A stretch of 57,062 bases of DNA from the NCBI GenBank assembly GCA_030167865.1, contig JALAGF010005773.1, positions 1 to 57,062 of the forward strand, in the 5' to 3' direction. The stretch's first letter is position 1. Each line of letters starts with the position of its first letter. Source of the DNA: Craspedostauros australis (lineage: Eukaryota). The notes beneath the pieces were generated by a model. The model made no database searches, had not been told where the DNA came from, and saw only the letters and a list, made by a program, of their open reading frames with translations. A program made the position numbers and the translations under genes. Shown piece after piece: positions 17,285 to 49,100 of this stretch.

Positions 17285-20200
17285 ATGGTGATGGAAGCAG
17301 CTTTCCCACGTGGAGGTCGATCGAAGACTCCGGACAAGCAGGCGCAGCAGGCCGATGATCAATCCCAAAAGAAGAGACGGAAGGATGACAGCAAGAAGGC
17401 AACAGCGGTCCGTCCCGACAGCGATTTCCTTTTCGGAAAGTCAGCAGCGGAAACGTCCGCCAAGCGCCGCAAAACATCGACGTCTTCGTCAGCCTCGCCC
17501 AAATCCAATTCAGGATCCGATTCGTCAAAGAAGCTATCCATGATGGAAGTCGGCGGCGGTGGTGTCGTGCGTCGCCGGCATGGCAAGAAGGAGGAGACCG
17601 TCATCGAGGCGCTGTCCTTCAACAAGCTCGCCAAGGACACCAAGCTCTTTGGAACTGTCCGGGAAGTCCATGACGAATTTGCCGTCGTCAGCCTACCCAA
17701 CCTGCTCACCGGGTACCTGCTGCAGGAGGGAGGCACCCCGCTGTCCAAGTGCCTGGCCATCGGCCAGTCCATGGCGTTCATCGTCGTCAAGATCGTCACA
17801 GAGCACGTCAAGGGAGGGCAGCAGCGCAGGAGGATTCAGGTGTCCGCGAAGCCGTCATTGATCAACGGACGGGACACACCGTCCAGGACCTACCCTATCA
17901 GAGGTCAGATCAAGTCTGTCGAGGATCACGGCTGTTTGGTCGACATAGGGTACAACCGCACTGGCTTCCTCCCATTCCGATCTGTCCGTGGTGAATACAC
18001 TGTCATCGAAGACTCTGCGAACGGGGGCGACGACGGTGACGACGACAACGACCAGGCTGCGATTGATGCTGTTCCTGATGGTCACCTCATCCTCCAGAAG
18101 GGACGGGTGTACGATTTCCTCGTCAATTCCGACAAGAAGGAGACCGTCACAGCGCTCTCTCTGTCCAAAAAGACCTACACGACGAAGCTGATACCAACTT
18201 CGCCGCCGCCGCTCTCGTCGCTGTGCCCAGGATGGCTTGTGCAGGCCAAGATCGACACTCTCGCCAGGAATGGACTTTGCATCACATTCTTCGGAGAAGC
18301 TTTCCGCGGAGCCGTCGAGATCTCCCACATCGGCGGACACTTCATCCCCGACGAACGCAACGAGAGCACGGAGTGGAAGGCCATCTTCAACAAGGTCCAG
18401 ACCTTCACGGCCCGCATCGTCGCCGTCGACGTCGCCACAAAGCTGATACGGCTGTCGCTGCAACAGCACCTAGTGGAAATGAAGCCACCCACCGAACTCC
18501 CACCAGTAGGCTCCACCATCAAGGGCTGCCGCGTCATCCGCCTGGATGCAGGCATCGGTGCGTTGCTGGCCTTCCCCGAATCGCACAACAAGGAAAGAGC
18601 CCACAGCAAAGTCAACAGCGATCTGCAAGCCATCCCGGCCTACCACGACTCTCGCAAGGTCGCCGCGGCCTACGTCCACATCTCGAAGGCCATTGATGAG
18701 AACGACGCGCAGCTCTTCACCAAGGAATTCGCGCCATCAACCGTCCACGACGTCCGCATCCTCAGCACGCAAAATCTCATTGACGGCGTTGCCTCCGGTG
18801 CTTGTTCCAAGAGCCTGGTCGACGCTCACGTCCTGACGCATTCCGACCTCCAACCAGGACGTATCTACCGTCAGGTTGCCATCTCGGCGCAGCTTGAGGG
18901 TGGCAGCGTGCTGGTCAACTTGGGTTCCGACGTGCGCGGTCTGATCCCTCCCCTACAACTCTTCGAAACCACAGCAGAATCTGGTTACCGCAAGAAGCTC
19001 CTGCGTGCCAAATTTGCCGTCGGTGCCAAAATCGACGTGCGAGTTCTTTGGGTCGACGCGGCAAGAAAGAAATGCCTCCTCACCTCGAAGAGAGGACTCA
19101 TGCAGGAAGTCGTAGACCCAATCACAGCCTACGAAGACATCAAACACGGACAACGCGCTGTGGGGTACGTCTCGAAGATCGATGATCGAGGTTTGTTTGT
19201 CACCTTCTGCAACCGGGTCTACGGACGGGTCACCAAGCGATCGTTGGCAGCAGATCTCGGAATCGACGATCACAGGCAGGATTACAGCGTCGGCGATGTC
19301 GTATCATGCTACGTCCTCAATCGCAAGTGCCGCGTCCAAACGCAAGGCAGGGGCAATATCGACAACATGGACGATGACGCCGCCGCCCACGACGACGACA
19401 GCATGGATGCCACGTCCACGTTCTGGGAGCTGACACTGGGCATGAAAGCAGATGATGCTGGGGACGACAAAGACGTTGATATGGTGCGAACTGACGCGTC
19501 CCCGCAGACCGTCCACCTAACGAGGAATATCGTCATCCCACCCAAGTCCATCAAGATTTTGCATCTGGTCAAGGGAAAGATGAAGAACAAGGTGGGCACC
19601 ATCCCTGGTTACGCCATCGTCAGCATGAAATCCAAGCACCTGCTGAAGGATCAAGAGATCACGTCGATGCCTTCATACATCGAGTGCAAACTGCCGTACG
19701 ACCAACTCCTGGACGAATACGACGCAGACGACCTCGAGTCGCCCGAGGCGCTGGATGAGCTGGCCGAAGGCGTTCTGAAGGTTGGCAAGAAGATCAACCA
19801 GCAGGCCATCGTTCTGACGGATCCCAACAAGCTCGACGTGGAGTACAAGACCGGGGTCGGCAGCCTGGTGGTCTTGTCCATCCGCAAGAAGCTCGTTTCA
19901 TGCATCTCCGATGCGGCAATCAAGGCCGAAAGCAACGAAGCCGACGGCAGTGAGACCACTGGCAACGAAGCCATGGTCCCCCACCCAACCTCCAACCTCT
20001 ACAAAGGAGCGAAGCTGCTCGGCTATGTCACAAGGATCGATCAGCGTTTTGGAGGCTTCGTGCGTTTCCTGGACGGTCTGACGGGCCTTGTTCCGAAGAC
20101 CAGCCGAGGCATCGACCTCCCCCTCTACGGTACCATCGTCACCCGTGTCGTCACAGTCGACGACACCAAGATGCCACCCAAAATCCTGTTGGAAACGGCG

Positions 20201-23200
20201 GCGGAACTGCCACGGAAGACATCTCCCAGCAACGGAACTGCCGCAGCGAACAAGAAGTCCCCTCCTGCACCATACAAGCTCGGGGACATCGTGGACAAGC
20301 TGGAGATCTCGCAGATCAATTTCCACCACGCGTCACTCACCATGGTAGATGACGAGTCGCCGAAGCACGCTCGTTTCGAGATGCAAGCATCTCACAAGAA
20401 ATCGCCGGTCTTGCCATCAAGTGGTGTCCTCAAGAAATCACGATCAAAGACCTCCAAGAAACCAAACAACAAGACCATCACGAAGGACCACCCCTTCCAT
20501 GGCCTCCAGGTTGGTGAAGTCTTGAAGAGTCTGGTAGTCGTGAGCGTCAAGAAGCAGAAGAACAACATGCACGCGGTCTTGCTCTCCGATTGGACCGACA
20601 CAGATCGGTCTTTCATGACGGCGGCCAGCGAGACCGACCTTCCCAAAGGAGCAGAGGTCGATGGAATTATCACCAGCGTTGCGACAGCCAACCGCGGTTT
20701 GCACGTCCAAATCTCGCCCGCTGTGCATGGATTCATCCCAGCTCTGGAGTTTTCGGATGATGTTGACGTGCTGAATGCGCTGCAACAAAGGGTGAAGATC
20801 GGTTCGCGCATCAAATGCCACGTGCTCGAGAACAGCCAAAGATCGAAGAAGGGGAGCGACGACAGAGGCAAGAACGGCAAGGGAAGAAAACGTTCGACGC
20901 TGTACCTTGGATGCCTCCCAAGTGCCACCGCGAGCGAGTCATCCAAGTCCAAGACCCAACCAAGCCGTGGAGATGTTCTGACGGGCATGATCAACAGGTC
21001 TGCCAATCCAAAGCTAGCCCCGTCGGTCATGATCGACTTCCGTGGTGGACTTGTTGGACGTTGCTGCATTTGCGAACTGGACAGTACCGACGAGTGGGTG
21101 AACATGCCTCTTGGCCGCATGGCCATGAAGGGAAGTAAACCTGGGTCGAAGAATGAGACCAATTCAGGCAACAACGATGACGGTACAAATGCTACGCCCG
21201 CTCAACAAACGAACGGTCCAAGCACACCATCGACTTCTGACGGTGAAGGTGCAAATGATTCCGGCAGGTATGTATGGTGATGTTGTTTTTCGCGTCGTGG
21301 TAACATGTCGCCATGTTGATGTGCAGCTGTGTTGATGATCCATTGATGAGCGCGGATGATGTGTGGATGATGTGGCTGTGTGTGTACCCTTGGATGATAT
21401 TCATTTGCGCATGTGTTTGGCACTGTGCTTGTGTGCACGTTGTGCTCGCGCATCTGAACCTGCATGAGGCGAACATCATGGTCTGTGTGGTACCATGCAT
21501 GTGATGCTCCGGTCCTCTTTGGACCGGGTTGATTGCAAAACAGCAAAGATCTTTGTGCGGAGAGGCCCGTGCCATTTTGTCTCGATGGGTCGCAATGAAA
21601 CAGGATCGACAGTTGTATGAAACTACAACACTTTGTTGATTGCATGACAATTTGTACAGCAGGCTCACTTATTTACTTTTGCTATGCTTCTACGTATTCT
21701 GCATTCTCGTGTTCTGGCACCTCGTATCATCTCGGTGCACATCATCGAACGATCATCGTTGTTGCCATGGTGATAATCGTCGCCATTCCACGATCACACA
21801 GTCCATTTGCCCACGGAAGATACGTGTCTTGCCGTGTGCTGAAGGCTGTGCGCGGGAGCACAACAATCGAAGCCAGTCTGAGGCAAGAGAGGATGGAGGG
21901 TGATCTCGATGACGATCCGATCCCCGAGGAAGGCGACACCATCCAAGGTTACGTTGTCCACACCGACAAGAAAGGTTGCTTCGTGCGACTCTCTCGCACC
22001 ACGCAGGCTCGTGTCATCCTCAAGGAGCTTTGCGATGGCTTCTTGCAAAAGCCAGAAGTCGCGTTCCCCATGGGCAGGCTGGTCGTCGGCAAGGTCAAGT
22101 CCGTCCGCGAGGCACCCAAGAAGGGCAAGAAGACCCTCGACTCGATCACGCATCTAGTTGACCTAGACATGCGTGAATCGGTGATGCTGGACGAAGATAA
22201 CAAGCTGACCTACGACGACATCGAGATCAAGGGCAAGTACAAGGGAACTGTGACGAGAATCGAAACGTACGGCGTCTTCGTCCGTTTGGACGGAAGCGAG
22301 ATCTCTGGACTTGCCCATAAGAGCGAGTGCAGTGACGCCTACGTCACGAGCGTCGAAGCTCTGTATGATCCTGGTGACCTCGTCAAGGTCCTGGTCGTCA
22401 AGAAGGATGACGAAACGAAGCGAGTTGGTTTCAGTCTGAAGGCCAGCCACTTTGCCGACGACGAAGACTCCGATGACGATTCAGACGCCATGGACGTCGA
22501 TGACTTGGAAGATGGCGACGGTGACGACGGCAGCGATGGCAATGAAGATGACGATGATGGCAGCGACGCTGTTGACTCTGACGACGAAAATTTCGTCTCC
22601 AAGCTCGCCAAGAAGATGAACAAGAGCAAGGCAGCGCAAGACTCTAGCGATGACAGCGACGACGATGACGATAGCGGCAGCGACGATGACAGTGATGATG
22701 AGGAGGACAATGGGAAGAACAACATGGACACCGATGTTGGCTTCGATTGGTTGCCAGGCAAGAAGGATTCCGTATCCAAGAGCTCTTCCGCTGCCTTTGG
22801 TGCCACCAGCAACGATGGCGACGACTCAGAATCCGACGACAGCGACAATGATTCAGATGACGAGGCCGACGACGGCAAGAAGTCCAAGACAAGCTCGAAG
22901 AAGAAGCAGGCCCTGCGCCGCAAGGAGGAACGCGAAATCAGCCAGCGAGAAGCGGCGTTGGCCGATGGTACCGCCGACGAAAACCCGGAGACCGCCGCCG
23001 ACTTCGAACGTCTCATTGCCGGCAGTCCAAACTCATCTGAGCTTTGGATCCGCTTCATGGCATTCTACCTGTCCATGGCGGATATCCCGGCCGCCCGTAA
23101 GGTGGCGCAACGAGCCTTCGATCGCATCGAGTTCCGCGAGGAGAAGGAGAAGCTCAACGTGTGGACTGCCTTGCTGACGCTGGAGCTGAAGTACGGGACG

Positions 23201-23821
23201 GAAGAGACCCTCAACAAGACGATGGAGCGGGCATGCCAGCACAACAACCCCAAGCACGTCCATCTCCGCGTCTGCGAGCTGCTCGCCAAGGACGTGAAGG
23301 CAAGCACCACGCCTGACTCTGTCGCGCGAGCAGACGCCATGTTCGCCAAGATGTGCAAGAAGTTCAAGTCGAAGAAGAAGGTGTGGATCGCCCACGTGCA
23401 GTTCCTTCTCGAGGTGTCGCGTCAGCAGGAGGCCCACGAATTGCTAAAGCGGGCCCTGCTCTCGTTGCCAACCTACAAGCACGTCGAGGCGATGACAAGG
23501 TTCGCGCAGCTGGAATTCGAACTAGGCAGCGCCGAACGAGGACGCACGTTGTTCGATGGTCTGACGACGAAGAATCCAAAGCGTCTGGATCTGTTCTTCG
23601 TCTACCTCGACAAGGAGGTGAAGTTCGGCGATGTCACCGCGGCCCGGCACTCCATCGAGAAACGGGTCGAGGCTGTCACCGACGGAAAGCGCAAGCTCTC
23701 CGACAAGCAGATGAAGAGCCTGTTCAAGAAGTGGTACAGAATCGAGGAAGAGCATGGAACGGAAGAGTCCTGCCAACGCGTCAAGGAGGCAGCCCGAGCC
23801 TTCGTCGAGAGGACGTCATAG
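17285..23821 (+). CDS. RRP5: rRNA biogenesis protein RRP5 (multiple S1 domains + C-terminal HAT/TPR); exons 17285-21267 and 21802-23821
   Basis: S1 repeats (GQIKSVEDHGCLVDIG; GYVVHTDKKGCFVRL; GTVTRIETYGVFVRL), an acidic linker, and a C-terminus with DFERLIAGSPNSSELWIRFMAF, IEFREEKEKLNVW and KFKSKKKVWI. A phase-2 GTATGT..CACAG intron at 21268-21801 keeps the frame. An alternative AG acceptor at 21819 is also in frame. Confidence 0.95.
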
Positions 23822-27867: not shown

Positions 27868-29891
27868 CTTTGATCCGTGCTATGATGCGCTGCGGAGCGT
27901 TTCGCTGGTACGACCACTGACGCGAGTGTTATAGTCGTACGACCAACCGATGGAGATAGAATCTATGATGTATTAGGGCACCTTCGAATGATTGGTGATG
28001 GGGATTGGCCACTCCGACAACGAAGTACTATTATTCTCGTAGCTGAGATACCGCAGAGTCGTCAAGTGAGGACACGATCAAGAGCGACGAGGGCAGCAGT
28101 AGTGGTGATAGCTGCAATCGACATCAATGTTGGTGTTGGTGTTGACGTCGATGTTGTTCGTCCCCACAAAGGCTTCGCCTGTCTCATGGGGTTGTGCTCA
28201 CTTGTGACTTCCGTCTCCTCTGTGTCCTCTGTCTCCCAGTTGTGGTTCTGGTTGGTTTTGTTGGCACCAACCAAGGTGATTTGGAATTCAAATTTTACTC
28301 CATTCAGTCAAAAGTGCGTGTAGGCTGCGGCAGTATTATCAAACTGCAGTAGATTCGTGTCCTTGAACATGACAAAACGTTTACATTAAAAGTGGTAAAT
28401 GTCTTGTTTACCGTTGTTTCTGAGGCAACCCCCAAACACGACCTCGGTGGTACGACAACTAACACGCACCACAAATGCAGCAAGACACTTCCGCGCGCAG
28501 CCGCTTGGTCTCGATGTTGCGCGCGTACGCGCATGTAGTTGTACGAGCTGTCACGTAGTCCTTGTTTTCTTGGCGCATTGCCATGACATGAAACATCGTC
28601 GTTCTGTCTTGTTGCGCGACAATCAATGCACACTGCGCATCCGCAACACTCCGGAGACTTCGAATCCGACCATCCGAGCCAAGTCATCAGCTCTCCATCC
28701 TTGCGCCATCATCCAGTCGTATCACACCCTCGCCCTCCAACCTCAACTCCGGCCCCGGATCTAGCTTGACCTACCCACACTCTACATCGCAAACGTTATC
28801 GCCGTCGGGCTTGGCAGCATTGCGCGGGTTTTGCGGTACCGAGCGTGTGTGGGTGTGCGTGATTGTGTTCGTGCGCGTACGTGTGCGTGCGTGCGTGCGT
28901 GTCTTTGGATTTGTGCTCGTGCATCCGTTCATGGTGTTCTATTACACGAGCTACAATACCATTCCAACAAAGTCAAGCAAGAGCAAGAGCAAGAGGAACA
29001 CCAGAAAGAAGCAACTGCAACAGCAACACAGTTCCTGCCGCCAGCTGCATTTGTTGAAGCAAGAGCACAGCACGGCAGATCGGATCAGACAACGTTCCTC
29101 TCCAACGAGATCACACAGCATCAGATCAACTCCATTCAGCGCGACCCAAAGCAACGCAGTGTAACTGAACAGAATAGAACAGAAGCAAGCAAACGAACCC
29201 TAGCCCTCTCTCGATTGGTAGACACACACACACACACACGCGCGCGCGCGCAGAGAGAGAGAGAGAGGCAACACACTTGTGTGCCAACGCCATTCATCCA
29301 TTAACAGGATCCTTCACCATCATCTGGCGCCCTCCTTGATCCGCACGGAAAGCATACGCACGAGCAGCGCAGACAACTTGAGCCTGTTGTTAACCAGCGA
29401 TCGAACGCCCCAAGCAATCGCAGCAGCTCTACTCCTTGCAGTATTGCATAGCAACTGCATAGCAACAGCAACTGCCACAAGGAAAAGGCCAGTCACCACA
29501 AAACCAACCAAGCAAGCAACGACGCAAAAGTCATCCATCACACCCTTACATGCCCCAGTGGTCTGCCGTGGTGAGCTTTGGTTCGCCTCTTCATCAGTAC
29601 TCGCACAAATCTCCACACACGACGAGTACACGTACTAATATACGCACACTCCACATCACTTTACCTCGTGAACGACACACCACGTTGCAACGCAGCATAC
29701 ACAACGCGACGTCAAGCCAAGCCAAGCCAAGCCCAACCAAACCAACGCAGTCACAGTTATCGCGGGAAAGTGCGCTTCGCTTCGTCTTGATCGAGTCGAA
29801 ACAGGCTGAATTGACCTCATCCTGGCCTGCGCTACACACGCAACGCGACGCAACCACCTCTGCAAACACTGGGCGCAACTGATTGGGACCA

Positions 29892-35921: not shown

Positions 35922-37309
35922 ATGTCCTCAACCGATTGGAAAATCGACACATCTTCGCCCGTCCTGGTCACCGGCGCAACGGGGTACATCGCCGGTGTGC
36001 TCATCAAGCAACTTCTTGATGCAGGCGTTACGGTTCACGGCACCGTCCGCGATCCATCCAACACCGAACGTCTCCAGTATCTCGTCGATGTAGCGGACAA
36101 GTCCCCAGGAACCCTCAAGCTTTTCCGCGGTGATTTATTGGAAGATGGGTCATTCGAGGAAAGCATGAAGGAATGTTCCATCGTCTTCCACACGGCGTCG
36201 CCATTTGTCTTGAAAGTGAAGAATCCGCAGAAGGAATTGGTCGATCCAGCGGTGAATGGAACCAAGAACGTGCTCAACACGGCAACGAAGACGCCATCCG
36301 TACGCCGTGTGGTGTTGACCAGCTCCGTTGCATCGATCTTCGCGGACGCGGCGGACACCTACAACGCACCCAACAATACCCTGACAGAGGACGTCGACAA
36401 CATCACCGCGAGCCTCGACTACCAGTCGTACCACTTCAGCAAGGCACAGGCAGAAATGGTGGCATGGCGACTTCTCGGTTGTCAAAATCAATGGACGATG
36501 GCCGTCATCAATCCATCTTTCGTCATGGGTCCGGGATTGAAGTACCACGCAAGCAGCGAATCAGTTAAATTCATCATTTCGGTGTGTGGCGGGGAGCTTT
36601 CAACTGGCGTGCCGAAGTTTGGCATGAGCTTCGTGGATGTCCGGGAAGTGGCAAGAGCTCATATAGTGGCAGCCTACAAGGAGGGTGTGACTGGTCGACA
36701 CATCCTCGCCGCCAAGAATTCCAATGCCTTCGAAGCTGCAACTGTAAGTGCACTCCGTGGCTTCGAATTGGTTGGTCCATGAATGCATCAATCAATCGCT
36801 CAAACAACGGGCATCGATTGTTGCGTGTATGGAAATGCTACATTACACTGACTTCTTGCGCGGACTTCTTGCAATGATACTACACCATCACTCACTCGAC
36901 ACCCTGCTTCATATTTCATGCAATGCTTCGCTGTGCTTCATTTCCTCTCGTTTTCCAAACACGCACACGAACACACCCCATGTGCATACTCTTCTCTTCT
37001 CTTGTTTACTCAATTCCATTCTGTATTGCCAAAAACAAACGCACGACATCGCAGATCCTTCGCAAGAAATACTCGCGCTACCCGATCCCTACAAGAACGG
37101 TGCCAAAGTTCTTGATGTCTTTGCTTGGACCATACCTCAGTGCCATCACTACACGCCGCTATGTCGCAAACAACGTCGATGTCGACGTCAATCTAGACAA
37201 CACCAAATCCAAGGAATCACTGGGTATCCAGTACCGCTCCTTGGAAGACACCTTCAACGAAATGTTCGAGCAGATCCTTGACTATGGCGGCGTGGAGAGG
37301 AAGAACTAG
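35922..37309 (+). CDS. Extended SDR, NAD(P)-dependent epimerase/dehydratase (DFR/aldehyde-reductase-like); exons 35922-36743 and 37055-37309
   Basis: VLVTGATGYIA, VFHTASPF, PAVNGTKNVL, VVLTSS, YHFSK, INPSFVMGP and VDVREVARAH. A phase-0 GTAAGT..GCAG intron leads to ILRKKY...DNTKSKESLGIQYRSLEDT. Confidence 0.93.
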
Positions 37310-38001: not shown

Positions 38002-38724
38002 ATGACCGAAGCAACCTGGAAAGTCGATACTTCGTCTCCTGTCCTGGTCACAGGGGCAGAAGGGTACATCGCGGGTGTGCTCATCAAGCAACTCCTGGAT
38101 GCAGGCGCCACTGTTCATGGAACCGTCCGCAACCTTTCCAAGCCAGAGGAGTTCAAGTACCTCACAGATGTCACGGATGACTCTCCAGGATCCATTAAGC
38201 TGTTCCGTCCTGATCTGACAGAACCAGGGTTGTTTGCAGAAGGCATGAAAGGTTGTTCCGTGGTCTTTCACATAGCTTCGCCGGTCTCACTGATGGTGGA
38301 CGATCCTCAGAAGGAACTGGTCGATCCGGCTGTGAATGGGACCAAGGATGTGCTCAACATGGCAACGAAGACTCTGTTGGTGCGCCACGTCGTCATGACC
38401 AGTTTGGTTGCGGCCATCTACACAGATGCATCCAACACAAACAACGCACCTGGCAACATCTTGACAGAGCATGTCATCAACATGACTGCAAGCATTGACT
38501 GCCAACCATACTACTATGACAAGCTATTGGCAGAGATGGCAGCATGGCAGGTTGCTGGCTCTCAGAATTGGTGGACGATGGCCACCATCAATCCAGCTTT
38601 CGTGACTGGACCAGGATTGAAGTACCATGCCAGCAGCGAGTCATTCAAAATACTGATTTTGATGGGCAGCAGAGAGTACAAGGATGGTGTGCCTAACCTT
38701 GGAATGGGATACATGGACGTTCAG
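38002..38724 (+). pseudogene. Truncated tandem paralog of the SDR gene
   Basis: Colinear with 35922-36640 up to GMGYMDV, after which homology stops abruptly at 38724. The catalytic-Ser motif TSS has become TSL, and there are multiple CpG-type substitutions. Confidence 0.85.
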
Positions 38725-38929
38725 TGTTGGAACATAATTGTAGATGGGTGTGAAGGATACTGTACCAAGAACATAGAGTGATCAGATTGCTGTTGGAGTG
38801 AGGATGAGTGTTTGTATTAGAGTGTTATTTGTATGAGTGTATCAGCACAAATACGTATAGTGCAAATTACGTTACTCCCGTAGCCCCCACTATCTACAAA
38901 TTTCACTTGTGTTCGGATCAGCAATCGCA

Positions 38930-38999
38930 ACGCCTGTAGCTCAACGGTAGAGCACCAGTAATTCTAACTGAGGTTCCGGGTTCGAATCCTGGCATGGTA
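38930..38999 (+). tRNA. Degenerate tRNA-like sequence (tRNA pseudogene or SINE/TE-borne Pol III head); anticodon not assignable
   Basis: A box/D arm TAGCTCAACGGTAGAGC, T arm CCGGG-TTCGAAT-CCTGG, 4-bp anticodon stem CAGT/ACTG, and a downstream T-rich tract. The acceptor stem pairs only with a bulge, and the loop AATTCTA lacks U33. Confidence 0.75.
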
Positions 39000-39555: not shown

Positions 39556-40080
39556 ATGAAGTTCACTCTATCTGTCATGATCTGCGCATTGCTTCTGCTG
39601 GCCGCCCAAGCATCAGAGGTGGCCGATGGGCAACTGGAAAGTGGAGGGGTTTCGCAATGAAATGCAACGGAAGGTGAAGTAACCAAGTCCATCCTCGAGG
39701 GAGATGGCACTGGAGCATCTCCACGCAACCTTCGAATTGGGAGGAAGGGGCGAAACAAACAGCACGAGCATGAACACGATGACAGAGGAGTGGATGGAAG
39801 TGGAGGACAGGGAGGACAACAAGCAGGACCACAAGGTATTAGGCAAGGTATCGGACAAGGCTCGGTACAACAGGGAGAAGACAGCTTCCGTCCACACTTG
39901 ATACAGCGAAGATACAGAGTGTATGTAGGAAGCTATGGAGGGTACCGAGGGGGTATGGAGGATATGGAAGAGGATACTGAACAGGATACTGAAGTGGATG
40001 GCCAGGTCCAACACAAGGAGGTGACTGAGGATAGCACACAACACAGAGCAGCGACAGGCTGGGTGATACACCACAAGTAG
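39556..40080 (+). pseudogene. Disrupted gene for a secreted Gly/Gln/Tyr-rich protein with an RXL motif
   Basis: The signal peptide MKFTLSVMICALLLLAAQA is followed by an in-frame TGA at 39658-39660. The frame then continues (SPRNLRIG...GGQGGQQ...GSYGGYRGG) to TAG at 40078-40080. Confidence 0.6.
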
Positions 40081-40619
40081 GCATTGCAAGTTCTTCCCAA
40101 CCACACCAGAAGCGAGGGAAGGACAGACAAAGCAGATGAAATCACTGGGATACACAATGACCGCGCAGGAACAGATCAAGAGCAACAACAGGCCAACCCT
40201 GGCTGGACAGTGACAGGATGCACAGAACAGAATAGAACAGAACAACAGCCTGTTCATTGTGAACCGCTCCCCACGAGTAATATCACAAATATCAGAAATC
40301 TACCATGTTACATATATTGCACACATGACACAACATGGTTTGATGATGGTTCCTTGTCGACTTCAGAGATGCCGTGCCACATCACTCCAATGTCACGGAC
40401 TGTCATGGACCGCCCCTCTGTCGCCACATCTTCGACCCTCTTGCATCACCCATCGTGGACGTGGTGGCATCAGCTGAGTGGCTGCACTTCCACACTGTCC
40501 TGCATGCAGTCTGCATTGGCATTGGTTCTCACCACATCCACATTTCACCACTGTTGCCTCCAGCCACCTCCTGTTCTCTGTCGTTCCGCTCACCTCGGCG
40601 ATGTGTGTCGGAAGCCGGT

Positions 40620-43600
40620 TCAAGCTGAAGAGTACTTCAACTGGACACCGAAACTCTCGGTCTTCCCATGCTCGCCACGGTGAATACCCGTGTCCTCCAG
40701 CGCCTTCGAAGCGGGGGGCTCACCGATCGGTGTCGCGATGTGTGGCGCAAGGTGGGTCTCGTCAGCTTCTGCTTTGGTTGTGGCTGCGTTTCTGGCTTTC
40801 TCCTTGGTCACTCCCAGCTCGGATTTGATCTTGGCGTTGACCTCGTTCTTGAATTGCCGAATCAACCTGGTTGGATCAAAGGTCCGAACCCAAGAGTATA
40901 TCACTTCTTTCATCTCTTCCATGACGGCAGCCTTCGTCACAGCGTCGGGTTCTCTGCCCAACGCATCAGCGACAGCGCACTTACCAACATCTTCATCTCT
41001 TTCGCGTTTGGCCTCAGCAACATCGGCTTGGGTCATTGTTTGATTCACAAGACTTTCTGGTCGGCTTGCCACACAGTACACACGATCTTCGCCAAATGGA
41101 ATGTGGAGGAGCTCGTGAAGGACGTTGTTCTTGGTGTTGCGGATGGTCTTCTTGGAAATCTTCTGATTGGCTGCTTTATCCTTTGCCTGAATGCAAATGG
41201 TGACAAGCTTGAAGTCCTTCCACACGGTCTTGTCGTTGTCGTAGTTGTTGTCGTAGTCGTCGTCGTAGTCATCCTCCTCCTTCTTTTGAGCAACCACGAC
41301 GGACACGTATCCGTCTGCCAAGTTGCTGCTGCCTTCTGCGACGCTTGCGATTGGAGGGTGGAACGCCTGTGTCCCTTCCTCGAGCGTTGGTTTGTTCATG
41401 ATGGCGTATCGCAGGACCCAGAGTCCATGGAGGTAGTCCTTGTCAATGGTCAGCGTGTCTTCGCTACTATACTGGAGAGGGGTATACTGTGTGAGTTGAT
41501 TGGTGTCGACGAAGGGAGTACGATTGTTGTGTTCGACTTCCCAACCTTGCAGATCTCTCCAGTAGGTTTGGTTCTCTTCCTCCTGTTCTGGGCTGCGTTG
41601 TGGTTGTGTTTGCCCTAATGACAACCTCATGGGTGACTTCTGAAGGTACATGCCCTCCATGGCAAACTCTGATGGAAAAGCAACAGGGTACCATCCGTCA
41701 AGCCCTTCCCACGAGTCTTCTATGTCCTTGTCCACGAATAGAGGTGTGAGAGTACCACCATCTCTCACTTCCGATGCATACATCGCAGCGCCATCCTCGA
41801 GCATCGATTTCAGATCCTTTCGATCTTCTGGTTCCACAGTCGTGGCTGCTGCTATCACACTGGAGAGGAATTGGACTGCGAGTGCTTCATATGCGAATGG
41901 TGTTGTCCCCAAGGCTTCATCGGCATGTGCAATGACTTTTCCGCCAGCGATCATCCAGCTACAGAGTCGCTGCATGGCAGGATCCATGAGGAAAGGGTAC
42001 ATCTCAACTTCCCCGTTCTCCTGTTCTGCCCGTCTGGAGAGATCCGCGAATGATTGGATTGTCAGGAGCCCAAACCTACCAAGGAGATTGCGTTTGGCGA
42101 CGTAGTGCTCATCAAAGTGTTGGAAGCGGATGGCATCTTTCAGAGCCTTCTCTCGGATGACATGGGGAGCGTCACCAGGATACACCGTGATCTTTTTCTG
42201 GAAGAGGAGGGCAGCGTAAGCGCTTGCCACAACCTGTAAGCGAAAGTGTGGCTTCCTCCGCACGGACGACATGCCGTTGGTCGCGCAGAAGTTCACAAAA
42301 ACAGTCGTGATGATCTTGGCTTGATGGCGGGGATCACCATATGAGAAGTTTGTGGTCGCAAGCTGGAACACCAAGGCAGAGGTCATTCTTGAGTTGTGGT
42401 GGACGATATCGTTGAGGAGGGGATATTCTGGAAGCTGTTGAAAGGGTGGAAATTTGTGCGACTTGCCTGGATACTCTTCACAGAGAACCTTGTAGACATC
42501 TTCAACCTTTCTTTTGGCAATTGGTTGAAGTTGCTCAAAGTTCTCATGCACGGTTCCTTCCATGTCACCATGGAGGCCTGTCCCTGCAATGGAGAACACC
42601 ACCTGCAGTGATTCCTTCTGCGTCTTCTTCCATTCCTTCTCATTGAGACGGTTTCCGCTTTCGTCTGGGTTGTTGCATCCCATCATGATGAATGCAGCAA
42701 GATCCTGACCAAGATCTTCATAGTTGCGGATGATGTCATTGACGAGGTTGGGCTGTGATCCTGCTTCATCGATGGCGACGACGATTCGCACCTTGTCATC
42801 CTTGGTGTTGCGGTGCTTGATCATTTGAGCGATCTCGAGAAAAAGAGCTCGGGTGCCCTTGTCTCGACCCACGACCTCGTCAATGGTTGTCTTGAGACTG
42901 ATTCGTGCTTCACGTTGTTGCCCATCGCCGCGTTTAGCAGTAGAAATGTCCTTTTCGACATCCAGATGGATGGAGAAGGCAGCATCTCTCGAGAACGCGC
43001 TGGCCGCGAGCTCGGCTGTCTTGCCACTCCCGCTGGCAGAGCAGTACAGCAGCACCAGATCACCGTCTGCCTTTTCCATGTATAGCTGCGGTGGCGATTT
43101 TCCAAGTTGGGCTTGATGTCGGAACTTAGGGTTGCCAATGTAGAAGACCTGGTGAGAAGAATATGAATCATCCTGTCCAGTGGCAACTTTCACTTGATGG
43201 AGTTTTTCTGTTGTTTCGTCACGGATGGCTCGGTGCAACTTGTTGATGATGGCATCTTGGAGTGATGCTGGTGGGCCTTCGTTGAGGGGTGGGAGTCCTG
43301 TGAATGATTGGCGAGCAACCTCGATGATTTTGGAGCCCGCTCGAATGATAGCAGTGAGGCCAAAGCGTTCACGTGTCAAGCGTTCTTGAAGGTTCATCAT
43401 TGTCCGTCCCGCATCCCAGAACCAGGCATTTCCGAATACCGATTTCCACAAAGGAGGTGATCCTGTGCCAGCTGCGTTGGAGTGAGGCTGGGCGGCTGCT
43501 GCTGCAAGTACTCTGGGTTTATTGTCGTCCCGTGAAGATCCGGAAGAGGAACTCAGTAAGGGAAGTCTCCGCCGGCTGTCCCCAGCAGCTTTCTTGCTGC

Positions 43601-43634
43601 TCTTGCGCTTGCACTTGCGCCTGTTCTTCCCCAT
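40620..43634 (-). CDS. P-loop NTPase + putative PD-(D/E)xK/REase-fold protein (Crinkler/CR-NTPase+REase-like), ~1004 aa
   Basis: Walker A LLYCSASGSGKT and Walker B IVVAIDEAG. The C-terminal half has AYEALAV...SNLADGYVSV...TICIQAKD (E...D...QxK). The ORF is intronless and starts at MGKNRRK. Confidence 0.72.
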   Translation of the reverse strand: MGKNRRKCKRKSSKKAAGDSRRRLPLLSSSSGSSRDDNKPRVLAAAAAQPHSNAAGTGSPPLWKSVFGNAWFWDAGRTMMNLQERLTRERFGLTAIIRAGSKIIEVARQSFTGLPPLNEGPPASLQDAIINKLHRAIRDETTEKLHQVKVATGQDDSYSSHQVFYIGNPKFRHQAQLGKSPPQLYMEKADGDLVLLYCSASGSGKTAELAASAFSRDAAFSIHLDVEKDISTAKRGDGQQREARISLKTTIDEVVGRDKGTRALFLEIAQMIKHRNTKDDKVRIVVAIDEAGSQPNLVNDIIRNYEDLGQDLAAFIMMGCNNPDESGNRLNEKEWKKTQKESLQVVFSIAGTGLHGDMEGTVHENFEQLQPIAKRKVEDVYKVLCEEYPGKSHKFPPFQQLPEYPLLNDIVHHNSRMTSALVFQLATTNFSYGDPRHQAKIITTVFVNFCATNGMSSVRRKPHFRLQVVASAYAALLFQKKITVYPGDAPHVIREKALKDAIRFQHFDEHYVAKRNLLGRFGLLTIQSFADLSRRAEQENGEVEMYPFLMDPAMQRLCSWMIAGGKVIAHADEALGTTPFAYEALAVQFLSSVIAAATTVEPEDRKDLKSMLEDGAAMYASEVRDGGTLTPLFVDKDIEDSWEGLDGWYPVAFPSEFAMEGMYLQKSPMRLSLGQTQPQRSPEQEEENQTYWRDLQGWEVEHNNRTPFVDTNQLTQYTPLQYSSEDTLTIDKDYLHGLWVLRYAIMNKPTLEEGTQAFHPPIASVAEGSSNLADGYVSVVVAQKKEEDDYDDDYDNNYDNDKTVWKDFKLVTICIQAKDKAANQKISKKTIRNTKNNVLHELLHIPFGEDRVYCVASRPESLVNQTMTQADVAEAKRERDEDVGKCAVADALGREPDAVTKAAVMEEMKEVIYSWVRTFDPTRLIRQFKNEVNAKIKSELGVTKEKARNAATTKAEADETHLAPHIATPIGEPPASKALEDTGIHRGEHGKTESFGVQLKYSSA

Positions 43635-43972
43635 TGTTGCAACTGCTATTGATGAGTGTGGTATTCCAACTCTTGGGGGTGGCGTCTGCTGTATGGTGTG
43701 GGTGGATGGTTGCAGGCTTCCTGTGATGTTGGAACGAACTGTGGGATACACACTGGACGTCTTGAGGAATCAGTGAGAATGGTCATGGGAGAAAACGCGA
43801 CGAAGACGACGGAGATGACGAAGCTCAGCAACAAGCAACAGCATACAACGAGTAAAAGGTACAGTTGAAAAGAAGGGCAAGAGAAAGACAGATCGTGAGA
43901 GATGGATGTCAGTTGGTTGGATTTGGAATGGCATGATCAACCCCCTTCCCACAATGGATGGGTTTACAACGC

Positions 43973-44027
43973 AATAGAATAGAATAGAATAGAATACAAT
44001 AGAATGCAATAGAATAGAATACAATAC
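43973..44027 (+). repeat. (AATAG)n pentanucleotide microsatellite
   Basis: aatagaatagaatagaatagaatacaatagaatgcaatagaatag visible. Confidence 0.9.
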
Positions 44028-44828: not shown

Positions 44829-45464
44829 TGGTCCAAGTGTGACGCCAATAAGAAAACGGCGACGATTGATCAATCGCCACATTTGAGTGGAGATCCAGGT
44901 TCAAACCCATGCCACCTCCACTCACATGAACATGTTGGCACGAGGATGTTGCGCACAGTGATTGAGCAGTTGCAACATGCCATGCGAAGTGCCGTGTGTG
45001 TTGTGTTGTGATGTGCTCTCCTGTGTTGTGCTGTGCTGTGTTGTGCTGTGTTGTGCCGTGCCATCATCCAGTGTCTGTGCTCGAACAGGTCCATTCTCAC
45101 ATGTTCGTCAACCAACGGAACCAGTACCAAACAGGATAGAGCACAGCAGAATAGAACCCAGGATGGTTGGGTTTCGTTCTGGCGTATGTAGTAGTCGTAG
45201 TCATCCACCACAGGCGACAGTGCTGGGACCGGGTGCAATGCTCGCTCATTTAGAATACAATTGTAGAATACTACACTATGCTCTGCAATGCAACACAATC
45301 CAATGCAGCTCCATATCTACAAGCACATGGACCAATGCAGCAGAGTACCCCAAACACACACATCGACTCGTACTGTATCAGTCCACACATCGACTCTGTC
45401 CACTCTAATCCACTCTGCTCTATTCTATTCCATAACATTCCATGTTCTGCCATGGCATGCCATT

Positions 45465-46135
45465 CTACGACACGCTACAAATCAGAATCCACCGCTGGAC
45501 CATCACTGCTGGACCACCAACGATACTGTACCCACCATCCACATAGATCGTCTGACCTGTGATTCCCGTCCCACCCATCGACAAGAATGACACCGTGTCC
45601 GCAAATTCATCCACCGTCACATTTCCCAACGGTGCACGCTCCTGCATCTCCTGTCGCATAGCTCCAAAGTTGGCGATGCCACCCTTGGCCACCACCGTGT
45701 TTAAGGGACCCGCGCTGACCATGTTGACAAACACAGGTGTCGTCTCCAGTGCCAGACCGCGCACGATGGATTCCAGGCTGGCCTTGGCCGGTCCCATGAC
45801 ATGATACGATGGGATGGCACGCACTGATCCCAAGTACGTCAAGGCTGTGATGGTGGAATGGTGTTCCATGTGAGGTTGTGCATGTCGTGCCAGTTCGATG
45901 AGGGAGTATGCTGAGATGGCATGGGCCTCTTGATACAGTAGTCTTCCAAGGTGGTGTTCAGCAAGGGTCGGTGCAGGTTGTTGGCAAAAGTCACGGAATG
46001 CACGATGGCATGCAATGGACGATGGTGTTGTGACACAAATTGAAAAAGTTTTGGGATATCGTGTTGGACATCGCAAATGAGGCCAGTCAATGATGGATAT
46101 TGTTGTTGAGTTGTGATGCGCCTGGAGAATGCCAT
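45465..46135 (-). pseudogene. fabI: Enoyl-ACP reductase (FabI-type SDR) fragment, frameshifted and 5'-truncated
   Basis: One frame gives LICDVQ...LHAIVHSVTFA...LLNTTLEDY. After a shift at about 45933 a second frame gives AISAYSL...LTYLGSVRAIPSYHVMGPAKASLES...VSAGPLNT...GITGQTIYVDGG. The N-terminal Rossmann motif is missing. Confidence 0.85.
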
Positions 46136-49100
46136 GGAGGCTCTCTGCCGTTCTCCGCTCCTCCACTGGGTTCCATGGGACGAGTCTTGCTGTTGCGTTC
46201 GCTCGTTGCATTGCCCTCAATAACACTTTCCACTCCCCGATCATCTTCACATGTATTGTCGCTTTTGGTTCCTTTACTCCTCCTCCGCCATCGACCATAC
46301 ATACAAACACTTACATCAGATCCTCCACAGTCGAGATGAGCACCAATGCAGTGAAAGTGAAGGAGCAATATCGACGTTAAATGATTGCAGCTACAAAACT
46401 TGACTACTGAGATTTTGCACACAGGATGATATTGGACCGATGCTATATCATTTATAAACGTCCTGATTGCATATACTTGTTCAAGAAATACCTTCGCTTG
46501 GAACATAGTATGGTCGTCGAACACATCATTCCATCCTTGCCTCTTGTATTCGTGGGGTTCGCACCAATTCTGCAACTGAGTCACCGCTTTCATCTTTGTG
46601 CAATTGAACGCATTGAAAGCACTCCTCAGCAACAACGCACATGTGTGCTTCACAAAACAGGGAAACTGACATAGTGTGGGAAAGCGGTGAATGCGCTGCA
46701 ACGAGACAAGTTTGATGTCTTTGCTTCTTGTCCTACGTTTGTCCATGACATAACAGAATCTTGAGCAAGATTCGCCACGGAAGGTGCTCGAAGTACTATC
46801 CTCAACAAACTTTTGAAATCCTCGAATTCCTGAAACATTGCGAAAACAGTATTGCTTGCCTGTGAATCAAGAGAAGCAGAAACAAGAACTTCCTTCTCAT
46901 ACTTTTTCAGGCATCAGGCCAAGAAATCGAGAAGGTTGAAAACAATCAAAAACTCCACTCGTGCTGCTTCTCATTTCAATTTTCGCCAGGTAGATTCGAT
47001 TTTGCTACTGTCGATTAGAAAATCTGTTCAACTCCACACATTCAATGCTGTAGCTTGGTTGCACTAATCGAGGTGCGGTTGGCGTTGATGGAACCTGAAT
47101 ATTGTCAAAACGTCCCGCAACTCGATTGTGATTCTCTCTGCACTGAGCAACGTGACTTGGTGTCAGATATTGAGCAACTTGCGAAACGGCTCTTAGGACG
47201 GCAGTGCGCATCTGCTCCAGTTTCTTCCAGATTTTCCCACCATCGAGAAAACATGCAGTTACCTCGAAGCATAATTCTGTTTGTGTGATACTCGAAGCGT
47301 TTCGATTCAAACCGCGTGCTGAACCAAACAACTCCGCAGCCGTAATCGTATCTTTTAACATCGCACCTACCGTCGATTCCACCGAACGAAGGTACTCCGC
47401 AACAGAAGTTACATTCATGTAATGCTGCGGGAAGATCATTGATTTTCCTCAGGTTGCAATACAATATACGAATGAAATTCGCTTTCTTTCAGGAAAATTC
47501 CAATTTAACCCCCATGATTGCTGTAGCGGGAGCAACAGTCGTCACAGAAAGAAAACATGCTTTCCATATCATCATGCCTCTCTACAACATCATCGAAGCA
47601 AGCGCGCGTTCAGCATGTCAAGCAACGCCCCTTCTATCACAGCCCGAATTCAAAGTAGGACTTGATATCATTTCGAGATGAAATGCTCCGAGTGCTTTTT
47701 AATCGGATCACCATGAAACTTAGTGATGCGTAGCGTTAACAGTTTGAAAGCGAATGTTTGTGGTTCGAGCCATTCGTATGATCTGCTTGTTCCTAAACCG
47801 TTGTTACTGAGCCGTTCTCAAGAGCTCTTTCTGGCGCTGATCCATTTCACATGGGGAAAACAAGCAAGTGGAGTTGGCCATTTCCACCAATCACAAGGCA
47901 AGTTATCATTGACAGCGTTTGATTGATGTGAAAAACGGAAACGCAAGCACCAAACCAGAACGTACACAAGAACTTTGGAGCATCTTCTTTTTGATCGAAT
48001 CAACAACATTGATCGGCTTGACGGCATTCACGGATGGACGCACCGACCTAGAACCGACGGCAACACTGAATCGTTCCACACAAGCAGACCCAATCATTGC
48101 ATGTACATGGTGAGAACAAGACGATCCATGAAGAAAATGCAATTGGTTTGCGATATGGTTCAATCCATTTGAGACCTCTAACGTCTCTAGCATTCTACTT
48201 TACCTAGAATACTCAATTGCAACCTCACTTCACCACCGTTTTCGGTGCATGCACAAACGTTGTTTGGTCAATTGGGTGCACGCTCTTGTCAGAAGCTAGT
48301 ATCCTGACTCGGACTGCTTGTGACGTTGCTACTCACTATTGACACAATCCCCGAGTGACTTGTCTATGACTACATTGTACACATCGTGGAATCACGCTAT
48401 CCATAATGCAATATCGAGCGTGTATTGTCCATGCTCGTCAAATCTCTGATTTTCAATTGCATGGGTTTAGCCAATGCATGAACGGAAATCGGAATCCATG
48501 AGCCTATTGGTGTCGGATCATAATATGACAAAGAATATTGTGTATGCCACACGTAAGTTGTGTTTGAAAATTCCAGCTTTGCTTTCAACGGCTTTGCAGC
48601 CAAACCACGAACTGATTCAATACATTGATACGGTTATGAAGAGAAAAGGTTCTTCACACATGTATATATTGTGTATTCCGTGCGCCGAGTGAACATCTTC
48701 TCTCCGTTATTGTGCCGACTTCTACCGATATTCTATTCTCGCATCCGCAACAAGCGACTCTCGATGTAACACGGTTCCCACTGTGAACAATACCGTGATC
48801 GAGCAAATTGACGACGCGTGATCAGCGAACCTCATGATCGACTACTGTCGCGCCAATGTGATACACGCTTAAAAATTCAGACTGATTTCACACTGCGGAC
48901 GCGATTGAACGAATCTCATGTGTTGCAAGGGATTGCATAGAATTTCAAATCGACGTTTGTCGTTTGTGCCATTAATGGTTCTCGCTAACATGACTGATAT
49001 ATCTTCATGGGTGAAACGAAGAGAACTAGATTCTTGCATCGATGGAGCATGTCGAGTGAGTGGGTTGGATGTTTGTCAAAGTATTACGTGACCTCCTCCC

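Follow-up and report, generated by a model that had tools for sequence, protein, structure and literature searches.

Among the closest described systems to the gene analysed here are the Crinkler-RHS proteins of Zhang et al. (2016), as summarised in excerpts of PMC5289972, PMC11064341 and PMC11342252. About a quarter of the Crinkler-RHS C-termini carry a module made of a nucleoside triphosphatase (NTPase), a helix-turn-helix (HTH) segment and a restriction endonuclease (REase), and pairs of NTPase and REase have been linked to transposable elements (both from the excerpt of PMC5289972). Header-less mobile elements of Crinkler-RHS (CR)-like type, with an N-terminal ATPase and a C-terminal REase, are also on record, for example Medea1 of Tribolium (PMC11342252, in excerpt), and a header-degenerate Crinkler-like protein is described as a selfish element in fish (PMC12957317, in excerpt), which shows that such modules can persist inside free-living eukaryotes. 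Here we analyse a stretch of 57,062 nucleotides from the diatom Craspedostauros australis (contig JALAGF010005773.1; hereafter the window, whose numbering is used throughout), in which a long open reading frame (ORF) at 40620..43634 on the minus strand encodes a protein of 1004 residues, P0001. We propose, with about even confidence, that P0001 is a header-less AAA+/STAND (signal transduction ATPase with numerous domains) NTPase joined to a probable nuclease, and that it acts as an enzyme of genome conflict or defence and not as a secreted effector.

As far as the excerpts describe Crinkler-RHS and Medea1-like proteins, P0001 has the same domain order (a P-loop NTPase, an HTH or winged helix, and a domain with restriction-endonuclease-type motifs); both are found among free-living eukaryotes; the logic proposed for both is that the NTPase regulates a nuclease directed at DNA. 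P0001 differs in having no ubiquitin-like (Ubl)/LxLFLAK header or other recognised header and in leaving the Pfam models of both families unmatched: P0001 and all 57 of its relatives (E <= 0.01) lack a match to the Crinkler header PF20147, as do 30 of 30 family members at E <= 10, and RHSP (PF07999) matched none of 30 members at E <= 10. An earlier reading made from the sequence alone had classed the gene as Crinkler/CR-type. The order of NTPase, winged helix and E...D...QxK motif does agree with that of Crinkler-RHS C-termini (PMC5289972, in excerpt), whereas the missing header and the unmatched RHSP model do not; the Crinkler-like architecture is therefore supported, and membership among the Crinklers is unproven, one testable defining feature (the header) being absent.

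The integrity of the gene is established. Its ORF starts with an ATG at 43634 and ends with a stop codon at 40620-40622 (1004 codons plus the stop codon); upstream of this ATG the frame stays open as far as a GTG at 43751, in a stretch without another ATG. Homologues pair with residues 121-865 of P0001 without a break, as fits an intronless gene, and the existence of a family of homologues (57 at E <= 0.001) argues that the ORF is not a chance one. Codon use is unremarkable for the locus, with a G+C fraction at third codon positions of 0.58 and a correlation of r = 0.82 with the pooled codon use of neighbouring genes, the individual neighbours themselves giving r of 0.53-0.92 against the pool. 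The intact frame of some 1004 codons that the sequence-only reading had recognised is thus confirmed, now with its strand (minus), which had gone unstated; the motifs it had quoted (CSASGSGKT, VVAIDE, an E...AD...IQAK pattern and a basic N-terminus) are likewise all found in the translation. We take the ORF to be a functional nuclear gene of a diatom-type genome, a statement that shares the even confidence given to our best explanation as a whole.

An exhaustive HMMER search of 1.84 billion representative proteins returned 57 relatives at E <= 0.001, among them 39 at E <= 1e-10 and six at E <= 1e-30. The best relative reaches E 1e-89 with 36% identity, and typical ones are 21-31% identical to P0001. 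Within the 30 relatives covered by the taxonomic look-up, all the named ones come from raphid pennate diatoms (Seminavis robusta, annotated as 'expressed unknown protein'; Nitzschia sp. RCC80; Craspedostauros australis; and a metagenome-assembled genome of Bacillariaceae), the unnamed remainder being contigs from metagenomes or sequencing runs, and several relatives are MMETSP transcriptome entries. Two divergent paralogues, P0059 and P0006/P0063, share the label MMETSP1442. P0006/P0063 lacks the FRH motif, carries N in place of the Walker B glutamate and is also without the threonine of GTG, the arginine aligned with R416 and the D and QxK residues; it may be a catalytically dead regulator or decoy.

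Further searches for relatives added little. A pattern-limited scan of IMG/VR viral contigs yielded 15 pattern matches and no confirmed relative, a pattern-limited scan of prokaryote genome contigs with a single protein yielded 33 pattern matches and likewise no confirmed relative, and metagenome contigs gave 205 pattern matches and one locus (L001, 3.5 kb) without useful context. Word-indexed homologue searches recovered only P0002, and nothing for region 150-620, against the 57 relatives found by HMMER, so that blanks from them are uninformative; low-complexity or common P-loop words may have swamped the index. Neighbours in a protein-language-model space, which serve as leads only, included red-algal clusters named 'Archaeal ATPase' (0.98) and clusters in which 45% of members bear a Crinkler header (0.94); residues 560-870 alone led to unnamed clusters and to NA37 (0.90). 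Above the Pfam cut-off none of the 57 relatives matched any family, five of them having weak, unrelated matches below threshold. Among the listed titles and abstract openings from the literature on diatom Crinklers and on diatom STAND/NACHT nucleases, none describes this family. It is, as far as sequence searches reach, a small, uncharacterised and fast-diverging family, seen so far only in diatoms where members are named; it is new, header-less and unannotated, with an architecture of a known kind. The family and its conservation are established, and the conservation counts given below refer to 30 aligned relatives with a mean column identity of 19%.

NTPase switches of the kind found in P0001 are used by nucleotide-binding leucine-rich-repeat (NLR) and Apaf-1 receptors, by ORC/Cdc6, and by the transposition ATPases MuB and TnsC. 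We modelled residues 121-880 with AlphaFold2 from a 61-row alignment (model residue i is protein residue i + 120), with a mean predicted local distance difference test score (pLDDT) of 83.7 and a predicted template modelling score (pTM) of 0.85; a fold from the single sequence of P0001 was unusable (pLDDT 32.9). In the model, an alpha-beta-alpha core leads into a helical lid and then a winged helix (model residues ~1-445, protein about 121-565), and the AAA+/STAND-type NTPase core with lid and winged helix can be delimited to residues about 141-564 (41943..43214, minus strand, as are all features of the protein given below). Its motifs are nearly invariant. Walker A, CSASGSGKT (residues 198-206; 43017..43043), has its lysine K205 in 30 of 30 sequences, and Walker B, VVAIDE (residues 285-290; 42765..42782), keeps D289 in 30 of 30 and E290 in 29 of 30, the three residues occurring jointly in 29 of 30. 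A family signature FRHxG (FRHQA in P0001, residues 171-175; 43110..43124) lies in a beta-hairpin just before the P-loop strand in the model, with R172 and H173 kept in 29 of 30 sequences.

A Foldseek comparison of the model with the PDB gave 28 matches at E <= 0.001 (NOD2 at 7.6e-6), drawn from plant NRC and ZAR1-type resistosomes, ORC/Cdc6, the archaeal ATPases 2qen and 2fna, CED-4, Apaf-1, NLRP3 and TnsC. The best structural matches were Dark/Apaf-1, NLRC4, NOD2, MuB and ORC/Cdc6, with RFC and MgsA also among the matches; in a search of viral folds (BFVD) all named matches were AAA+-type or other ATPase proteins, two of them at E <= 0.001. Likeness to STAND/NLR proteins extends over the NTPase, lid and winged helix, as residues 121-565 match Dark/Apaf-1, NLRC4, NOD2, NLRP3 and the plant NRCs. 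When the NTPase half was compared by hhalign with three bacterial STAND or ParA-type ORFs, the P-loop alone aligned. On the model, residues about 121-565 are an AAA+/STAND-type P-loop NTPase with a winged helix; this fold is established, and the earlier claim of an NTPase, when checked with AlphaFold and Foldseek, holds together with its near-invariant Walker motifs.

The C-terminal conserved module (residues about 573-860; 41055..41918), delimited from the model and from conservation, is a putative PD-(D/E)xK nuclease. In model numbering, a helix at 461-478 bears E583 inside the consensus 'GFExLSTH' and is separated by an insert of ~150 residues, modelled in part with less confidence, from strands at 642-645, at 655-664 (with D774 directly before it) and at 685-697 (ending in Q816-A-K818); helices 708-718 and 721-727 and a strand at 730-736 follow the third strand. 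This predicted order of helix-strand-strand-strand-helix-strand is that of PD-(D/E)xK cores, and a hairpin pairing of the second and third strands, should they form one, would bring D774 beside Q816 and K818 in the manner of restriction-endonuclease catalytic residues. In the translation, D774 (41313-41315) stands in an ...LADG... motif and Q816-A-K818 (41181-41189) in a CIQAKD motif. Conservation across the 30 sequences is high at these positions (E583 in 28, D774 in 28, Q816 in 26 with H in two others, K818 in 27, D819 in 28 and R851 in 28), and 26 of 30 retain the full set of E, D and (Q,H)xK; of the four that do not, one is a truncated sequence. The PD-(D/E)xK catalytic motif (E on a helix, D at the second strand, QxK on the third) is thus present as a pattern, which is distinct from activity. 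Variants with QxK occur in active enzymes such as those of Mrr type.

Two further parts of this half are peculiar in composition. An acidic low-complexity insert, KEEDDYDDDYDNNYDNDKT (41226..41282 in the translation), falls in the loop between the second and third strands; within it an in-frame (GTCGTA)n microsatellite at 41232-41270 encodes DDYDDDYDNNYDND, so that the putative nuclease hairpin carries an insert that in the alignment is particular to P0001, its relatives having shorter loops. The microsatellite is a likely site of length polymorphism. Beyond the module lies a charged tail (residues 867-1004; 40623..41036), predicted to be helical or disordered, which the transcript ORF P0013 (137 residues) matches over residues 867-1004 with 45% identity (E 1.4e-19). 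A two-copy complex prediction of residues 565-870, in which the alignment was not used, scored 0.00 and left the fold uncertain. A small difference from described nucleases concerns a histidine: CR-REase7 and CifB have a conserved H three residues past their active-site E (PMC11342252, in excerpt), and in the P0001 family a conserved H lies five residues after E583 in the consensus, P0001 itself having Q there.

For profile comparisons, sets were taken from bacterial genomes reached via a neighbouring gene fragment, and comprised 21 Mrr_cat segments and six TnsA-like ORFs; Mrr_cat was chosen post hoc, after the likeness of its motifs had been noticed. The likeness to the Mrr type (PF04471) consists of an FE..L helix, a DG before a strand, a strand of the form h-h-h-Q-x-K-(D/R)-(Y/W) and a hydrophobic fourth strand, all in the same order; the differences are the ~150-residue insert of P0001 between the E helix and the strands, and a likeness no greater than that to Response_reg. 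With hhalign, the top alignment paired the family's 'TIMxQAKDY' with 'kIxvQxKr' of Mrr (score 19.5), the second paired 'spfGFEvLS' with 'p..FE.lV' (score 16.7) and a further one paired 'DG' with 'DgG', the three motifs standing in the same order along both profiles. When the Mrr columns were shuffled, one of 150 shuffles reached the top score and none of 150 reached the sum of the top two. The Pfam model Mrr_cat (PF04471) matched none of 30 members at E <= 10, and hhalign against the six TnsA-like ORFs, each as a single sequence, gave a best P of 0.15 from a weak set, TnsA being above cut-off in two of 88 genomes.

A number of results weigh against the reading of P0001 as a defence enzyme with a nuclease domain. 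Compared with the C-terminal profile, an unrelated real family, Response_reg (21 segments), reaches the same top score as Mrr_cat (19.5), a comparison of Mrr with Response_reg gives more (20.1 and 19.6), and a ranking of Mrr and Response_reg ORFs by the family hidden Markov model (HMM) showed no preference (p = 0.49). The listed PDB structural matches all fall on model residues ~1-445, and none on the C-terminal part. Among 30 members, no Pfam family recurs in more than two at E <= 10, PADLOC and NCBIfam models gave nothing that recurs (to E <= 10 or E <= 1), and the Mrr_cat, NACHT, NB-ARC and RHSP profiles found no match; PDB sequences gave no match by sequence either, a profile search being empty at E <= 10 as well. 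Finally, sensor repeats, which are C-terminal in typical NLR-like STAND receptors, are absent, and hence a defence protein would have no evident trigger: no Pfam repeat family (LRR, WD40 or TPR) was matched, and the part of the model beyond the winged helix is a compact alpha/beta domain.

Homology to Mrr_cat was rejected as statistical support, because the Response_reg control scored equally and the HMM ranking gave p = 0.49.

Several of these results favour the view that the C-terminal domain is no nuclease at all, and that P0001 is a STAND/ORC-like ATPase whose conserved C-terminal part binds a ligand, a protein or a nucleic acid but does no cleaving, in a role such as that of a signalling hub, chromatin factor or loader. 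Profile and structure searches give the nuclease fold no support, the listed fold matches miss this part of the protein, and Q816 occupies a position that is usually D or E in the (D/E)xK motif. Moreover, the Pfam model NA-iREase1 (NACHT-associated inactive restriction endonucleases) matched two sampled bacterial ORFs, and the model itself indicates that inactive nuclease-fold domains are known in such a context. Set against this, E583, D774, K818, D819 and R851 are near-invariant and Q816 is kept in 26 of 30 sequences at a background identity of 19%, which is the pattern of an active site, and in the model the conserved residues are placed where the second strand begins and where the third ends, like the catalytic residues of restriction endonucleases. 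We consider a non-nuclease unlikely, though a real contender. For the nuclease, we judge it somewhat better than an even chance that the C-terminal third has a PD-(D/E)xK (restriction-endonuclease) fold with an E...D...QxK site; the call is a probable one and draws on motif positions, conservation and predicted secondary-structure order, and from these we infer both the fold and the activity. The earlier claim of a restriction-endonuclease fold is accordingly consistent with the E...D...QxK pattern and the order of strands, and gains nothing from the Mrr_cat and TnsA profile comparisons, which were not above background.

A second close parallel is formed by STAND NTPases with nuclease effectors, which include the NLR/Apaf-1 architecture of animals and plants and the bacterial Avs and NACHT proteins. 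Bacterial genomes in our sample contain STAND-Mrr fusions that P0001 mirrors in inverted domain order. One (L063:2846-5971, plus strand) combines TIR, Mrr_cat, NACHT, pentapeptide and WD40 domains in 1042 aa, and another (L067:2326-4632, plus strand) combines Mrr_cat with nSTAND3 in 769 aa, both being NLR-like arrangements of defence type; the search grouped both genomes in one phylum with loci labelled SAR324.

The N-terminal 120 residues of P0001 are variable or charged. They open with a basic patch, MGKNRRKCKRKSSKKAAGDSRRR (residues 1-23; 43566..43634), in which nine of the first 15 residues are K or R, and continue as a variable helical region. Among full-length relatives, 13 of 38 show a K[KR]x[KR] motif or four consecutive K/R within residues 1-45, compared with 29 of 551 control windows of 45 residues; the patch of P0001 misses that regular expression, yet is more basic still. 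By its sequence the N-terminus looks like a nuclear-localisation signal and not like a signal peptide, and action in the nucleus is our best guess for its location. Three paralogues depart from this: in P0005, P0004 and P0021 the N-terminus is a hydrophobic stretch that resembles a signal peptide, with A/F-type residues after it, in place of the basic patch (P0005 passes a hydrophobicity test for a signal-like N-terminus; P0004 and P0021 are alike by eye), and their sequences suggest that they may be routed to the endomembrane system or the plastid.

These features bear directly on the possibility that P0001 is a secreted Crinkler-type effector delivered into another organism. Its domain order is like that of Crinkler C-termini (PMC5289972, in excerpt), and Crinkler clusters with headers are among the protein-language-model neighbours, as leads only. 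With the PF20147 header absent from P0001 and its 57 relatives, an N-terminus that is basic and not hydrophobic, and named family members that are free-living photosynthetic diatoms, we regard secretion as very improbable. The absence of a signal peptide and of an LFLAK header had been remarked from the sequence and is borne out by the basic N-terminus and the unmatched PF20147; on the same grounds, together with the likeness to a nuclear-localisation signal, the suggestion that an intracellular role is likelier than that of a secreted effector also proves sound.

We now turn to the surroundings of the gene, which bear on whether P0001 belongs to a mobile element. The window is an ordinary, gene-dense eukaryotic stretch with a proteasome subunit, TPR, RRP5-like S1/HAT, UBA and TBC/TLDc ORFs, and further with SUZ, a histidine phosphatase, two tandem epimerase-type genes, an enoyl-reductase-like gene and a U32 peptidase. 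The enoyl-ACP-reductase-like gene, identified by Pfam adh_short_C2, is an apparent pseudogene on the minus strand: positions 97-236 of the model lie in 45465-46310 and positions 42-97 in another frame at 45842-46216, which implies a frameshift near 45936, and its N-terminal part (Pfam positions 1-41) was not found. The tandem paralogues of the NAD-dependent epimerase/reductase type (35922-36782 and 38002-38781, plus strand) share 72% nucleotide identity over 300 nt; the second has only Pfam positions 1-184 of 240, the remainder not being found, and may be truncated. The first notice of the locus had placed P0001 at the core of a decayed island, as the only long intact ORF among several pseudogenes. 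Locally this describes the two degenerate neighbours; across the window the genes are otherwise ordinary and include ordinary long ORFs, and the wording was an overstatement.

A selfish mobile-element protein could take the form of a TnsC/MuB-like ATPase fused to a TnsA-like nuclease, or of a 'CR-effector-like element', either mobile or recently immobilised. The link of NTPase-REase pairs to transposable elements (PMC5289972, in excerpt) and the description of Medea1-type CR-like elements (PMC11342252, in excerpt) speak for such an origin, as do the two decayed neighbours and a pair of (GAATA)n-like arrays lying ~340-380 nt from the two ends of the ORF. In the window these arrays occur at only four sites (29167-29181, 40225-40244, 43972-44026 and 45416-45430), with 12 matches to the pattern in 57 kb where 0.03 would be expected; the two that flank the ORF, one ~380 nt beyond its stop codon and the other ~340 nt ahead of its ATG, have the same orientation, and the arrays may be regulatory microsatellites or the trace of an insertion. 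Other marks of mobility are missing. No terminal inverted repeats or long direct repeats surround the ORF, no transposase, integrase or reverse-transcriptase domain was found in the scanned ORFs of at least 45 residues on either side (36.6-40.7 kb and 43.9-50.4 kb), and the 57 kb hold no second copy or fragment, as all 83 tblastn segments from 78 family proteins fall inside the ORF. Compared with MuB, the TnsC and TnsA pair and McrBC, P0001 carries the ATPase and the nuclease-like part in one chain, and it differs from Mu/Tn7-type systems in that its window has no element ends and its scanned flanks no transposase partner, the TnsA comparison being empty as well. Matches to MuB and TnsC tie with those to NLR and ORC proteins, codon use is like that of the neighbours, and 57 representatives in 1.84 billion proteins imply no burst of copies. 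We rate a mobile element as a minor possibility, slightly less likely than the non-nuclease. Of the earlier suggestion of a selfish or mobile protein or an intracellular defence protein, the intracellular part is thus the likelier over secretion, and the window bears no mark of a mobile element.

Some other features of the window stand apart from this question. The C-terminal part of the enoyl-reductase-like gene has prokaryote relatives mostly labelled as SAR324 cluster, at 42-49% identity (24 loci in a pattern-limited scan). RRP5-type S1 domains occur in both of two adjacent long ORFs on the plus strand (17285-21280 and 21617-23821), with HAT repeats in the second, and the two probably make up a single RRP5 gene interrupted by an intron or a change of frame. 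At 38935-38994 (plus strand) there is a weak, partial Rfam match to tRNA (32 bits, where the gathering score is 29, over positions 6-65 of the 71 in the model), for which ARAGORN makes no tRNA call; it may be what is left of a tRNA or an element derived from one, and the depth of sequencing run X1 there is 44-52. The label of X1 as RNA is a guess, and the run holds 0.10 of the sampled words. Over 30 bins its contigs covered 15, patchily and with 90-99% likeness; summed contig depth inside the bins of the ORF was 0-7, several bins having none, and rose to 90-216 at 40007-40674, nearly all of which is immediately downstream of the stop codon (the listed contigs have ~91-93% likeness there). This pile-up could represent a 3' untranslated region, if the library is 3'-biased, or a short transcript of its own, or a repeat that comes from a related organism. 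A joint that skips 41328-42762 was seen in a single contig with a 21-letter side. The coverage by X1 is no basis for expression of P0001, and transcripts are known for relatives only.

It might also be supposed that P0001 is a housekeeping protein, namely a lineage-specific diatom factor of replication, repair or recombination in which an ORC/Cdc6- or clamp-loader-like ATPase is combined with a repair nuclease. ORC/Cdc6, RFC and MgsA among the structural matches, N-termini like nuclear-localisation signals, codon use like that of the neighbours and the presence of relatives in transcriptomes would all suit this role. The family is at the same time very divergent (the best relative at 36% identity, typical ones at 21-31%), includes divergent paralogues in one strain, of which P0006 is without the catalytic residues, varies in its N-terminal extensions, a few of them signal-peptide-like, and has no relatives outside diatoms in the searches run; we therefore hold a housekeeping role to be improbable. 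Conversely, a part in conflict is indicated by the lack of sensor repeats, the high divergence, the paralogy within one strain, a dead copy included, and the restriction to diatoms.

Our preferred explanation, that P0001 is an NTPase and probable nuclease of genome conflict or defence, would work as follows. The protein would enter the nucleus, where the binding and hydrolysis of ATP would control its oligomerisation, its loading onto DNA, or both, through the NTPase and the winged helix, and this step would license cleavage of DNA by the C-terminal domain. Its role would be in intracellular genomic conflict, either as a defence against viruses and mobile DNA or as a domesticated selfish nuclease; this role and the nuclear location are what we infer from the features above. 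A more speculative extension, which we put forward as possible at best, is that the diatom family of nuclear, NLR-like NTPase-nucleases without sensors serves as a set of executors in cell-autonomous immunity. The trigger would then be DNA itself or a viral factor; in response the NTPase would assemble on DNA in an ATP-dependent manner, and the nuclease fused to it would destroy viral or mobile DNA, or the cell's own genome in abortive infection or programmed cell death. Such executors would be a eukaryotic counterpart, in inverted order, of bacterial STAND-nuclease defence and a 'domestic' use of the Crinkler toxin module, and the signal-like paralogues might serve the plastid or an endomembrane compartment.

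As primary producers diatoms are of major importance, and their blooms are brought to an end in part by viruses and parasites. To our knowledge, almost nothing is known of the intracellular immune or cell-death machinery of diatoms. Should the C-terminal domain prove to be something other than a nuclease, what remains is a new orphan branch of AAA+/STAND ATPases. If our explanation is true, the module of NTPase and nuclease known from Crinklers and mobile elements would be used without a delivery header in free-living algae. This conserved, probably nuclear fusion of an NTPase and a probable nuclease, restricted to diatoms and with relatives that are expressed, is a testable candidate for such machinery.

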